NCBI GenBank assembly: GCA_963793425.1
Contig: CAWCAG010000009.1
Span: 384,001-448,000, forward strand
Direction of reading: 5' to 3'
Length of the DNA stretch: 64,000 nt
DNA from: an uncultured cyanobacterium
Lineage (GTDB): Bacteria > Cyanobacteriota > Cyanobacteriia > Cyanobacteriales > CAWCAG01
Position numbers and translations under genes: made by a program
The notes under the pieces: generated by a model
What the model was told of the DNA's origin: nothing
Seen by the model: only the letters and a program-made list of their open reading frames with translations
Databases searched by the model: none
In this document: in pieces, positions 20,945-24,150 of the stretch
Position numbering within the stretch: position 1 is the first letter of the stretch
Layout: every line of letters begins with the position of its first letter

Positions 20945-20982
20945 AATTGAGACCCCGGAAAATATAATTAAGGAAAATAAGA

Positions 20983-21225
20983 TTGGCAACTAAACCACAA
21001 AATAAAAAAGTTATTGATTCTGATACAAAGTTCGCTTTATTAGTTTTTGGTATTCCCATTGCTGGTCTGATTTACTGTGGCTTAGGTATCACAGCGATGG
21101 TTTCTTTTCCTTTCCTGAGACAACACGCTCTAATTTCCGGCGGATTCTTTCTTTTTACTCCCTTTAGTATTGCTGCTTCAATTTGGATTAGGGCTTCGGC
21201 GAAAGCTTATAGAAAGACGGGGTGA
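20983..21225 (+). CDS. small two-TM hypothetical protein
   Basis: 80-aa ORF with two hydrophobic helices and an AAGGA RBS. Confidence 0.6.
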   Translation: MATKPQNKKVIDSDTKFALLVFGIPIAGLIYCGLGITAMVSFPFLRQHALISGGFFLFTPFSIAASIWIRASAKAYRKTG

Positions 21226-21245
21226 CATCTAAAGATATTAATGTC

Positions 21246-21355
21246 CTAGTAGTCTGTCAATTGCCAATTGACGGGTAAGGGGGAAGGGGGAAAGGGTAAG
21301 GGTAGTACACTTGATAGTTCGGCTATACCCAAATTCAATCTGGACAAACCACTAG
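21246..21355. mobile_element. 110-bp MITE-like element
   Basis: Ends CTAGTAGTCTGTCAA and TGGACAAACCACTAG are inverted repeats (12/15); G-rich heptamer-like core. Confidence 0.5.
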
Positions 21356-21438
21356 TCGTTAGGATTGAAACTCTGGAAAATGGGGAAATCATTTAAAATG
21401 ATGGCATTTCCACAGTTAGTAAAAAGTTGAGGCTCAAT

Positions 21439-21827
21439 ATGGACCCTATCACTACAGCAATTGTCGCTGCCCTAGCTGCTTTGAGTAAAGATGCGATTAA
21501 AGACGGTTACAATGCTCTTAAATCTACTTTGAAGAAAAAGTTTGGCTCAGAAAGTGATCTAGTTGATGCTGTTGAAAAATGGAAAAGAAGCCGGATTCCG
21601 AGGGTCGTAAGGCGATGGTACAGGAAGAAGTTGAAACAGCTAAGGCTAATGATGATACTGAAATTGTACGATTAGCTCAGGAATTGCTAGAGCAAATTAA
21701 AGAACAACCAGGCGGGCAACAAATCATCACCCAAAATATCAGTAACGTTAAATATGCTGCTACCTCTGGTTCCGGTAGTGCTAACATTAGCAACATTACT
21801 GAGCAGAGTAAATCTGAGGACGACTGA
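21439..21827 (+). pseudogene. Bell-like helical effector with C-terminal amyloid-like motif; 1-nt frameshift near 21580
   Basis: MDPITTAIVAALAA...KDGYNALKSTLKKKFG joins EKKPDSEGRK...AQELL...NVKYAATSGSGSANISNI if one base is restored at AAAT(T)GGAA. Confidence 0.7.
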
Positions 21828-21855
21828 GATTAGTTTAATTGCCAAAGTAGCTGAT

Positions 21856-22860
21856 ATGTCTGAGCAAGAGGAGATTAAGCAAAGGGTCACAGAGGCTGAG
21901 TATGCTGCCACCTCAGCTACTGGTGATGCCAATATCACCATTACTAATCGGTGGTAATTATCAGTAGATTATTTTTGACGGCTAAGGAACGACAGAAACA
22001 AGCTGAGCTGAGTGAAGCTGACTCTCTGGCTCGCTATTCACTGTCTTTGCTGAATGAAGAGAAGAATTTGGATACTTTCGTTGAAGTAATCAGGGCAGGA
22101 AAAATCCTGCAAAAATAGAAGAAGCAAGATCCGGAGGTGGTGAGCGCTCTAGCAGCACATATCTACCAACTTAGGGAACTCAACCGTTTAGAAGGACATA
22201 ATGACTTAGTTTAGTCTTGATAGCAAGCTACTCGTTTTCGGAAGTGGTGAAACCAAACGACTATGGATATAGGCCAGCGTAAGTTTCAGCCCAGATGGTG
22301 AAACCTTGGACACGCTACTGGTAGTGTGAGATGATACTATCAAACTCTGGAATGTCGAGACAGGAGAAGAAATTCGCACTCTCAAAGGACATACTAGCTG
22401 GGTCTGGAGCATAAGTTTCAGTCCAGATGGTCAGATATTGGCTACTGGTAGTCATGACAAGACTATCAAACTCTGGAATGTTGAGACGGGAGAGGAAATT
22501 CGCACTCTTGAAGGACATGATGCTTGGGTTTACAGTGTAAGTTTTAGTCCAGAGAGTGAAGCCTTGGCTACGGGTAGTAAAGACAATACCATCAAACTCT
22601 GGAATGTTGAGACGGGGGAAGAAATTCGTACTCTTAAAGGCCATGATGACTCAGTCTGGAGCATAAGTTTCAGCCAAGATGGTCAGACTTTGGCTACAGG
22701 AAGTCTTGACAATACCATCAAACTATGGGGAGGGAAAATAGGCTGGAGCTTGGATGAGATAATGGAGCGAAGTTGTGATCGCATCCGCAATTACTTAAAG
22801 TACAATCCCAACGTCAAAGAAGAAGATAAACGCTTGTGTGATGGTATTGGTAAAATTTGA
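21856..22860 (+). pseudogene. degraded NLR-like WD40 protein; NTPase region missing, with stops and frameshifts
   Basis: N-terminal peptide 21856-21957; linker ...IRAGKIL...IYQLRELNRLEGH; WD40 repeats LATGS.D.TIKLWNVETGEEIRTL.GH; C-terminal SCDRIRNYL..NP. Confidence 0.75.
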
Positions 22861-22895
22861 AAAAATACCTTAACTCTCGATTAACGAAGAGGTAA

Positions 22896-23132
22896 ATGAT
22901 GAATGCAAAACTTATGGTTCAGCCGTCATTTTTTATTAATGCTGGCATTCAAATGAAATTAGTCAGAGGGCTTTATCTTTTTAAGTTCAGTGATGGCTTA
23001 CAAGAGCGATTGGAAACTCTCAACGAGAAGAAAAGAGAACTAAGTTTGATACCCAGTGAAGAAGTAGAACTTACTGGAATTCTTGAGTTTAGATCGAATT
23101 TGCAGCCTTGTCAAGCCAAAATGTATTTATGA
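22896..23132 (+). pseudogene. small hypothetical gene upstream of the HNH remnant, frameshifted and partly duplicated
   Basis: LQERLETLNEKKRE..L.P.EEVEL; its 3' part is imperfectly repeated at about 23229-23345. Confidence 0.45.
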
Positions 23133-23318
23133 GTAGAGATAAGAATGACTACTGGGGCAAAGATTCAGTGGAGGTGGAGAATGACAAATATCGCTTGAGT
23201 AATTCACTAATAGAAGACAGGCACAGAAGTTTATACCCAGTGAAAAAGTAGAAGCTGCTGGATCAGATTGAATTTTCACCTTACTCAATGCCAAAATTAT
23301 TGCTGAGTCAAGATAAGA

Positions 23319-23480
23319 ATGGCTATTGGGAGAAAGATTCGACAGCAGGTTCGAGAAAGGGCTGAATATCTCTGTGAGTATTGTCACTCATCAGAAGAGG
23401 CCAGTGCTGCAAAATTTGAGATTGATCATATTCAACCACGTTCTAAAGCTCCACTGCTTGCCAATAACTTACCCTCATAA
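23319..23480 (+). pseudogene. truncated HNH endonuclease
   Basis: MAIGRKIRQQVRERAEYLCEYCHSSEE...FEIDHIQPRSK; similarity stops where the convergent PPTase gene ends. Confidence 0.75.
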
Positions 23481-24150
23481 CTTCTCCTCCGGCAGCCACT
23501 GCACCAAAATAATTTTCTCCCAACTGAATATCTTCTAGAAACCAACCAGGAATATTAATTAAGTTTGCTGGCTCTTCTGGTAGCAAAGAAACTTCTACTC
23601 GTTCTAAGCCTCCTCCTAAGCCTTCTCCTGTAGCTTTTAAATAAGCTTCTTTGCGAGTCCAAGCGCGAAAAAAAGCTTGTTTTTTTTCTCTGGGCGGTAA
23701 GCGATTTATAACATCCTGTTCCCTTGGGGAAAAGAAGCGTTGGGCAATTTGCTCTACAGGTTTAGTTTGATTAAATCCTTCTACATCAACTCCTACTGGA
23801 AAGTTCTTGGTTACCGCATAAAGAGCTAAATTTTGAGAATGAGAGAGATTAAAATGTATTTGCTCTCCTTTTAAATAAGGCTTACCACGCTTTCGATAGC
23901 TAAACTGTAACTGGCTAGGTTCAACTTCTAAATAAGCACCAAGGATTTTTCTTAACATTCCTCGACAAGCAATGAAGCAAAGACGATCTTTTTGAAAATA
24001 GAAACGTTCTGCCCGATGTTGTTCTTCTGGGCAAAGCAATTGAGCTAGTTCTTGTATTTTAAACGAAGGCTGAGTTAATGAGAAGCGCCAAATATCAAGA
24101 GTGCCGTCAGATAAGACTAGTTTCTCAGGAACAGGTTGCCAGTCAAGCAT
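23443..24150 (-). CDS. Sfp/HetI-type 4'-phosphopantetheinyl transferase
   Basis: GKP, FNLSHS, VGVDVE and WTRKEAYLKATGEG. Confidence 0.92.
   Translation of the reverse strand: MLDWQPVPEKLVLSDGTLDIWRFSLTQPSFKIQELAQLLCPEEQHRAERFYFQKDRLCFIACRGMLRKILGAYLEVEPSQLQFSYRKRGKPYLKGEQIHFNLSHSQNLALYAVTKNFPVGVDVEGFNQTKPVEQIAQRFFSPREQDVINRLPPREKKQAFFRAWTRKEAYLKATGEGLGGGLERVEVSLLPEEPANLINIPGWFLEDIQLGENYFGAVAAGGEVMRVSYWQAVEL

Follow-up and report, generated by a model that had tools for sequence, protein, structure and literature searches.

A decayed cyanobacterial gene pair that very probably descends from a Bell-type effector and an nSTAND1-WD40 receptor with matching terminal motifs

In the fungus Podospora anserina, the WD40 NOD-like receptor (NLR) NWD2 carries at its N-terminus a copy of the motif that forms the C-terminus of HET-S, the pore-forming helical effector encoded by the adjacent gene. 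Amyloid signalling between an NLR sensor and a pore-former is known in fungi and catalogued in bacteria, where a single functional proof is known, the Bab/Agp pair of E. coli ECOR25, which acts in abortive infection (Ibarlosa et al., 2024; bioRxiv 10.1101/2024.11.07.622273). The bacterial catalogue was drawn from homologues of the Bell effector domain, whose neighbours within 5 kb were kept only if they matched Pfam NACHT or NB-ARC; ten families of bacterial amyloid signalling (BASS) motifs were defined, each from motifs with at least five pairs, pairwise alignment gave 44 further pairs outside these ten, and the diversity was said to exceed ten (Dyrka et al., 2020; bioRxiv 10.1101/2020.01.06.895854). 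Several BASS motifs form fibrils and prions, with BASS1 and BASS3 among those tested (Dyrka et al., 2020). Here we describe two collinear broken genes on the plus strand at positions 21439-22860 of a 64,000-nucleotide stretch of an uncultured cyanobacterium (contig CAWCAG010000009.1, positions 384,001 to 448,000), the whole of which is called the window below. We read them as a pseudogenised copy of a two-gene module that occurs sporadically in cyanobacteria, and place the probability of the whole explanation, including an amyloid-type mechanism, at roughly three in four. That the locus is a decayed pair of a Bell-type effector and an nSTAND1-WD40 receptor with matched motifs is, taken by itself, very probable. 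It contains the following features.

21439..21582, plus strand: N-terminal half of the effector (Bell or HetE-N type), translated in the frame of 21439; matches PF20701.
21579..21580, plus strand: frameshift site, one T missing relative to intact homologues; the window reads ...GAAAAATGGAAAAG... where homologues encode EKLEKK.
21579..21827, plus strand: C-terminal half of the effector down to its stop, translated in the 21579 frame; comprises the final two helices, the KEQPGGQQ linker and the motif tail.
21726..21800, plus strand: effector-side motif ITQNISNVKYAATSGSGSANISNIT, from the translation and the alignment of homologues; pN/pS 0.15.
21828..21855, plus strand: intergenic spacer of 28 bp, from the sequence.
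21856..21957, plus strand: remnant of the receptor N-terminus, 33 codons and a stop, equivalent to residues 1-31 of intact nSTAND1-WD40 receptors (tblastn).
21874..21945, plus strand: receptor-side motif IKQRVTEAEYAATSATGDANITIT, from translation, BLASTP and alignment; pN/pS 0.29.
21946..21950, plus strand: deletion junction where about 475 codons (about 1.43 kb) are gone and the reading frame switches (tblastn of intact receptors).
21951..22211, plus strand: remnant of the hydrophobic helix and helical linker ahead of the WD40 region, in the frame of 21858, with TAG at 22116-22118 inside.
22212..22329, plus strand: decayed WD40 blade region with TAG 22212, a frame change, TAG 22270 and TGA 22327 (translation).
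22330..22860, plus strand: open rest of the WD40 sensor (about four blades) with the conserved C-terminal tail ...CDRIRNYLKYNPNVKEEDKRLCDGIGKI (PF00400; tail common to intact receptors).

The effector is read in frame 1 from 21439 as MDPITTAIVAALAALSKDAIKDGYNALKSTLKKKFGSESDLVDAVEKW (also written MDPITTAIVAALAALSKDAIKDGYNALKSTLKKKFGSESDLVDAVEK), with nonsense beyond; past the lost T it continues in the frame of 21579 as (L)EKKPDSEGRKAMVQEEVETAKANDDTEIVRLAQELLEQIKEQPGGQQIITQNISNVKYAATSGSGSANISNITEQSKSEDD, and frame 3 from 21579 gives (M)EKKPDSEGRK...QQIITQNISNVKYAATSGSGSANISNITEQSKSEDD with a stop at 21825-21827. The receptor remnant begins MSEQEEIKQRVTEAEYAATSATGDANITIT 28 bp past that stop; its ATG at 21856 opens MSEQEEIKQRVTEAEYAATSATGDANITITNRW, which ends at a stop at 21955. 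A preliminary description of the window had claimed that one motif lies both at the C-terminus of the small protein and at the N-terminus of the next, and that the two DNA copies have diverged synonymously. Both claims hold. The two peptides align without gaps with 12 of 25 residues identical and 18 of 25 positive (E 6e-7, BLASTP, single comparison). In a 32-codon register, six of the 12 identical residues are written with different codons and the nucleotide identity is 55/96. The similarity is not due to chance, since the same two-sided motif recurs in related loci.

Judged from its sequence, the small protein is a Bell-type effector. Its N-terminal half matches the Pfam family HetE-N (PF20701; E 2.5e-6, 28.1 bits against a cut-off of 25), and a search with its C-terminal half returned 174 homologues of 45-144 aa, mostly 129-134 aa and cyanobacterial where named; precomputed PF20701 annotation was present on all 120 that were listed of the 174. 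The closest, P0001 and P0002, are 87% identical and read EKLEKKPDSEGRK across the frameshift site, while P0034 (110 aa, listed at 98%) is identical to the window except at that site, where it too reads EKLEKKPDSEGRK and keeps the frame intact. In an AlphaFold2 model of P0001 (129 aa; 60 aligned homologues), helices span residues 3-13, 18-35, 40-50, 55-67 and 74-89 in a block with per-residue confidence (pLDDT) of 81-91, followed by an unstructured tail at 93-129 with pLDDT below 50. Helix 1 is hydrophobic, and residue 2 is Asp in the window (MDPITTAIVAALAAL; MEPISLIIAALGAGA in homologues); homologues start with MEPIS or MDPIT, many of them with MEPIS, and have Asp or Glu at position 2. The Bell domain is defined by such features, among them a hydrophobic N-terminal helix whose position 2 or 3 is acidic (Dyrka et al., 2020), and the MEPIS region is described as an N-terminal signature common to Bell, Hell and Bab (Ibarlosa et al., 2024). 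The Pfam name HetE-N derives from Kaur et al. (2021; PMC8195603), who list it as an uncharacterised effector domain common to fungal HetE and the TPR-GreA/B-C-PIN systems, the type to which Bab/Agp belongs (Ibarlosa et al., 2024; Kaur et al., 2021). HetE-N also matched four of six tested cluster representatives that are short and carry the motif C-terminally. Cyanobacterial proteins with the same PGGQQIINQT linker appear in the searchable part of the Bell-side BASS2 file (PMC8086366 supplement). The earlier view of the small protein as Bell-like is therefore upheld by the HetE-N match, by the five predicted helices with their disordered tail and by sisters with the same linker in the BASS2 set.

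The architecture of the module, the match between its motifs, their conservation and the class-matching of its partners can be observed directly in related loci, 37 of which were taken from species-representative cyanobacterial genomes; intact pairs among them are those of Lusitaniella (L005), Crocosphaera (L003) and Anabaena azotica (L027). A same-strand gene with the NTPase-opening box PY[RQK]GL lies within 1600 nt downstream of the effector in 35 of the 37; of the two loci without the box, one has a receptor cut right after the motif (L013) and the other a degenerate motif open reading frame (ORF) (L029). In 28 of the 35, the receptor frame overlaps the effector stop or starts no more than 40 nt from it. 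All ten downstream proteins that were scanned contain nSTAND1 (PF20703, E 3e-77 to 2e-123), as do all 11 database proteins found with the first 42 receptor residues (PF20703). Neither NACHT nor NB-ARC was present in any of the five partners with a complete Pfam list (L036, L008, P0138, P0153 and P0164). The preliminary description had predicted that homologues would occur as adjacent pairs and that intact downstream genes would encode a STAND NTPase; both predictions are borne out, the NTPase being of the nSTAND1 type and not NACHT or NB-ARC.

The sensors of the ten scanned partners are WD40 in eight and FGE-sulfatase in one (L008), with none in L036 (504 aa). The L008 receptor (L008:6286-8592) is of YAATS type, with the FGE-sulfatase domain, of C-type-lectin fold, in place of WD40; FGE-type domains on nSTAND1 proteins are described as targets of diversity-generating retroelements (Dore et al., 2024; PMC10907252). 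Hydrophobicity averaged over 19 residues (Kyte-Doolittle) peaks at 1.63-2.34 in each of the 19 receptors that exceed 560 aa, and the peak falls at residues 499-522, past the NTPase and ahead of the sensor. In receptors L001-L027 this is a single segment of about 20 residues, and a remnant of it is present in the window at 21951-21990. Should this helix cross a membrane, it would separate the sensor from the NTPase, one on either side, and that would be an unusual arrangement among NLR-like proteins.

Two unrelated motif classes occupy the same effector/receptor scaffold. The YAATS type, found in 31 loci, reads ...Q[NT][IV]SNVKYAATSG[ST]GNASIS.I[TN]E on the effector side and MSEQ.EI.Q.[IV]TE.EYAATSATG[DN]A.ITITNYYYREE on the receptor side. 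The BASS2-like class, found in six (L019, L030, L032, L034, L035 and L037), reads ...NTVSG..VGGNFEFKPVQ on the effector and ...KDT.VGRDL.FAPVQI on the receptor. Effector and receptor belong to the same class in all 37 loci, and in L028 both sides are altered together (effector QSAISATG, receptor QSAVSGTG). Local alignment of own pairs gave a mean score of 57.3 with a minimum of 41 (35 loci), against 20.3 +/- 4.3 with a maximum of 46 for shuffled receptor cores; cross-class scores were 17-20, against 47-57 inside a class. When 33 effector- and receptor-side segments were aligned without gaps, neither side varied at I6, Q8, A24 or I26, and G22 hardly varied; the YAATS columns are constant because they were the criterion for inclusion. 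The ratio of nonsynonymous to synonymous differences (pN/pS) was 0.15 on the effector side (27 segments) and 0.29 on the receptor side (22 segments), at pS of 0.50-0.58; these segments were picked for exact YAATS, which lowers pN somewhat. Purifying selection acts on the two-sided motif. Residues Q, N, G, V and I make up 48.5% of the effector-side core and K, P and L 4.7%, with 34.7% and 1.6% on the receptor side, and the same compositional bias is reported for BASS motifs (Dyrka et al., 2020).

The motif is sparsely distributed. A 32-column profile of both motif sides found 41 proteins at E <= 0.001 among 1.84 billion cluster representatives: in 19, residues 2-34 hold the motif and the NTPase behind it fits the profile of nSTAND1 regions; 13 are short proteins with a C-terminal motif; seven are short N-terminal fragments, two of them products of the window locus; and two are odd. 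One of the odd proteins, P0166, is probably a chimera; the other, P0162 (a 292-aa fragment), has a receptor-type YAATS motif in its interior, preceded by a COR-B (Roc-COR) domain and followed by a proline-rich linker and then a further region, and may represent another receptor architecture or a merged gene call. Two variants belong to the proteins with a C-terminal motif: P0145 (158 aa), a Bell protein with tandem motifs, first the YAATS and then the BASS2-like type, and P0137 (157 aa), in which an EAD1 adaptor domain precedes the Bell linker and YAATS motif. Among 401 genomes sampled evenly over the phylum, the motif occurred in nine (window genome included), all from one order and from eight of 156 genera, and each of the nine has two same-strand adjacent matches about 55-240 nt apart. 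With nine of 401 genomes in one order, the module is rare and patchy, a pattern often seen in defence-type genes. A plasmid collection gave no tblastn match to P0032, and no RNA run was among the sequencing runs listed for near-identical DNA.

Set beside the described systems, the locus is closest to the Bell/NLR BASS pairs. Like them it combines a helical effector of about 130 aa, in which helix 1 is hydrophobic and position 2 acidic, and a motif of about 25 aa that sits at the effector C-terminus and again, past a short spacer, at the N-terminus of the next collinear STAND gene; the compositional bias is the same, and sister loci of the effector family carry a BASS2-filed motif. It differs in the YAATS core, in the nSTAND1 partner, in the hydrophobic helix between NTPase and sensor (19 of 19) and in that the window copy is a relic. 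With Bab/Agp it shares a Bell-related effector, an N-terminal helix of 'MEPIS' type and an effector C-terminal motif repeated at the N-terminus of the adjacent sensor, whereas the Bab effector is shorter (a domain of about 80 aa) and has another motif, BASS11 (Ibarlosa et al., 2024), and a link to phage is known for Bab/Agp but not for the cyanobacterial pair. The signalling logic of an N-terminal NLR motif matched to the C-terminal motif of a neighbouring effector is that of HET-S/NWD2, which differs in being fungal, in its HeLo effector domain, in its NACHT domain and in the presence of HRAM twice in the effector, and shows no sequence relation. Finally, the nSTAND1 conflict systems (Kaur et al., 2021; Dore et al., 2024) have the same NTPase family and WD40 or FGE/CLec sensors, and the L008 partner, with nSTAND1 and FGE-sulfatase, resembles their targets diversified by retroelements; they differ in using fused effectors or EAD adaptors, and the accessible parts of these papers describe no short terminal motif that a separate Bell-type protein would share.

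The BASS2-like class of this scaffold is filed under BASS2 in PMC8086366, in cyanobacterial entries with the lead-in PGGQQIINQTQTNT (searchable part of the supplement), and since these entries have the same lead-in, the effector family was present in the published Bell set. That screen accepted only NACHT or NB-ARC partners and so could not have paired YAATS; the motif appears to have gone unnamed because its partners are nSTAND1, with NACHT or NB-ARC in none of five. YAATS, KYAAT, SNVKY, SATGNA and ITNYY had no hits in the searchable part of the BASS1-10 instance lists (PMC8086366 supplement), nor had YAATS, KYAAT and NYYYRE in the searchable part of the PMC9815663 supplements. A literature search for YAATSG, YAATSA, NVKYAATS and EYAATS found no such motif, the lone match being unrelated, and no BASS number above 11 in an amyloid context. 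The YAATS motif bears a loose likeness, by eye only, to some BASS6 instances. As far as the searchable instances go, it appears to belong to none of the families BASS1-BASS11, BASS11 being that of Bab/Agp, which agrees with the earlier suggestion that YAATS is a motif family of its own.

The system is of a known kind, and its motif family and nSTAND1 partnership appear to be undescribed. What it adds is a well-conserved motif family outside the reach of the published screen, an nSTAND1 receptor class with a hydrophobic helix ahead of the sensor, and a natural motif-swapping experiment on a constant scaffold that permits a clean test of signalling specificity. A broader proposal is tentative, and we would not count on it as a whole: YAATS would be an undescribed twelfth BASS family that couples Bell effectors to nSTAND1 receptors, with a sensor perhaps across the membrane, exchange of matched cassettes, insulated channels and dual-motif effectors. 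If it is correct, the WD40 or FGE sensor may sit beyond the membrane, given the membrane-spanning helix before it; exchange of YAATS and BASS2-like cassettes on one scaffold would produce insulated signalling channels; and dual-motif effectors such as P0145 (Bell, YAATS and BASS2-like) would let one executioner answer two receptors.

In the ancestral module, gene 1 encoded a protein of about 129 aa with a five-helix Bell-type domain, a hydrophobic helix 1 (MDPIT.../MEPIS...) and a disordered tail bearing the motif I-x-Q-x-[IV]-x5-Y-A-A-T-S-x2-G-x-A-x-I, and gene 2 a protein of about 700-1250 aa with the same motif, NYYYREE, the nSTAND1 NTPase, one hydrophobic helix and a WD40 sensor. A ligand on the sensor would trigger NTP-dependent oligomerisation of the receptor; the gathered N-terminal motifs would then form a β-arch stack (amyloid-like, cross-β), which would template the matching motif of the effector; and the hydrophobic helix of the effector, once freed, would damage the membrane and kill the cell. 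These steps are modelled on HET-S/NWD2, the tested BASS1 and BASS3 motifs, the Bell/NLR pairs and Bab/Agp. By the same analogy the module would be of the cell-death or immunity type, and amyloid templating is the coupling mechanism that we favour, with moderate confidence.

Several observations weigh against this account or narrow its support. The monomer model of P0001 leaves the motif unstructured. The partner NTPase is nSTAND1; the published Bell/NLR screen proposed BASS signalling for NACHT or NB-ARC partners only. Foldseek found no match of the effector model in PDB at E <= 0.001, and a wide VIA-align search returned only generic helical bundles (best Z 6.2) and no link to HeLo, MLKL or a solved pore-former; a PDB sequence search with the effector profile A2 gave nothing meaningful. 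PADLOC and NCBIfam returned WD40-type rows alone, with none for either the effector or the NTPase, and PADLOC thus documents no defence role. The 37 loci and the nine genomes are related, so that the counts overstate independent support. Lastly, part of the decay in the window may be strain-specific or an assembly error, since the frameshift and the 22116 stop are absent from near-identical contigs or P0034.

The first of these points, the lack of β structure in the AlphaFold2 monomer, also speaks for a rival view, in which the shared motif would be a homotypic docking tag that pairs β-strands or forms a small folded interface, with no self-propagating cross-β fold and no prion-like templating, in the way proposed for effector-associated domains (EADs) and Death-like adaptors elsewhere among NTPase conflict systems. 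Such adaptor logic is described for nSTAND1 systems (Kaur et al., 2021), in P0137 an EAD1 adaptor domain accompanies the motif, and the architecture and class-matching require specific recognition only. We nevertheless hold the docking tag to be unlikely: the motif is BASS-like in its length of about 25 aa, in its richness in N, Q, G, S, T and I and poverty in K, P and L, and in its terminal placement, and several BASS motifs form fibrils or prions (Dyrka et al., 2020); the other motif class of this scaffold is listed under BASS2; and in Bab/Agp an amyloid motif switches a Bell-type effector (Ibarlosa et al., 2024).

We now turn to the decay of the window copy. When 22 intact receptors were compared with the window by tblastn, residues 1-31 matched 21856-21948 at 55-87% identity, and past 21948 the matches were in another frame (L005 residues 507-594, L003 residues 522-606). 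Receptor residues ~32-506 have no counterpart in the window, so that the nSTAND1 NTPase is gone in its entirety, together with half of the hydrophobic helix; a Pfam scan found no NTPase family in any piece of the window. In G008 the sequences that flank the window junction are 1443 nt apart. Downstream of the junction, the receptor relic is broken at TAG 22116, TAG 22212, a frame change, TAG 22270 and TGA 22327 and is open from 22330 to the stop at 22858; PF00400 matched the ORF 22438-22860 in three stretches (E 4.9e-34), and the C-terminal tail matches those of intact receptors. The effector lesion is a loss of 1 nt, because P0001, P0002 and P0034 read EKLEKKPDSEGRK across the site. The lost NTPase region and the single-nucleotide frameshift, one T missing behind 21579, are as the preliminary description had stated. 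With an NTPase-less receptor, a frameshifted effector and no second motif copy in the genome, the module cannot work in the window, and this copy matters only as an example of how the module decays.

Contigs of near-identical DNA from four sediment-metagenome runs (X1-X4), all of one study, provide further alleles. The NTPase deletion is present in every contig that covers the junction at 21948, among them X1 record 1, which spans 21844-22212, and the deletion must on this ground be old and shared. Deletions of 22213-22273, of 5 nt at 22309 and of 1 nt at 22329 are common to the four runs, and in each of them 22118 is C and not G, which gives TAC (Tyr) as in homologues and no stop at 22116. 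The main contig in three of the four runs also lacks 21580-21843, an in-frame loss of 264 nt that starts at the frameshift base of the window. As computed from slices of the window, the allele with this deletion encodes an 84-aa fusion, MDPIT...ITITNRW, which also occurs as the protein P0133 and joins the first 47 effector codons to the receptor motif; the helix-WD40 remnant then forms one open frame of 281 codons. In run X3, one low-depth contig has an extra T behind 21579 that keeps the effector frame open. One further contig, of 1876 nt and lower depth, departs from the window exactly at 21948 into about 1.67 kb of other sequence and behaves as an NTPase-bearing allele would. The population holds several differently broken alleles of one locus.

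These alleles bear on the judgement that the copy is probably dead, which stands for the receptor, with its NTPase deletion and stops, and is less secure for the effector, whose frameshift is absent from P0034 and from one contig. Either the window strain alone carries the frameshift and some stops or, less likely, these are errors. It could be argued from this that the locus is not fully dead and that a remnant has a residual or new function, either as an orphan Bell effector or as the 84-aa fusion of half a Bell domain with the receptor motif together with the 281-codon helix-WD40 ORF, and possibly as a decoy or modulator of amyloid signalling. The argument would draw on the 264-nt deletion, which is a multiple of three and belongs to the main contig in three of four runs, on the P0133 product (84 aa) and the uninterrupted 281-codon frame of the metagenome allele, on the Tyr codon at 22116 in all four runs and on the effector frame that is open in one contig and in P0034. 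We consider it very improbable. No allele covering the junction has an NTPase, the genome has no other copy of the motif on which a residual product could act, the fusion retains only about 47 residues of the five-helix domain, chance alone would leave frames open shortly after a deletion, and the four runs are one study. The window lesions are probably real, since the window is well assembled elsewhere, with ORFs of at least 120 aa covering 87% of it and 20945-23442 as the only long gap. Sequencing error as the source of all lesions is excluded for the NTPase deletion, which is seen in independent contigs too. Nor does the motif similarity stem from gene conversion or a recent duplication, because half of the shared residues differ in codon and the side-specific flanks are kept across loci.

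The window genome (5.28 Mb in 9 contigs, 98.6% complete) holds no second copy of the effector or of the motif. At the syntenic site of a genome of the same genus (G001) the stretch 21226-23442 is absent: the flanking genes, for an 81-aa membrane protein and a phosphopantetheinyl transferase, lie 48 bp apart with no pair between them. G001 has an effector copy elsewhere (L051, G001:C11:566600-568090), cut after about 62 residues by an insertion that appears to bear a transposase, and adjoining an unrelated STAND gene; the neighbour gene (1785 aa) encodes a different, weakly related STAND protein with no YAATS. The putative transposase is a 417-aa ORF next to the cut in L051, on the other strand. 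The only other strong nSTAND1 gene of the window genome (G000:C5:2133938-2138025, L054:1938-6025) encodes a CHAT-like N-terminal region, nSTAND1, a hydrophobic helix and WD40, and is itself broken, by a TGA in frame at L054:3672-3674 and by a shift of frame near L054:5591. The genome seems to be losing its NLR-like genes to decay.

Upstream of the effector, the segment 21247-21355 (with the G-rich run GGGGGAAGGGGGAAAGGGTAAGGGTAG) has about nine partial copies elsewhere in the genome at 82-96% identity and more copies in G001, and metagenome depth is several-fold higher there, so that a small dispersed repeat is probable. The stretch from the relic to the phosphopantetheinyl transferase gene (minus strand, 23443-24150) holds further debris at 22896-23480, namely small ORFs of no family and a truncated HNH endonuclease ORF at 23319-23480 (Pfam HNH, E 3.8e-5). 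In G010 the counterparts of 22899-23101 and 23270-23443 are contiguous.

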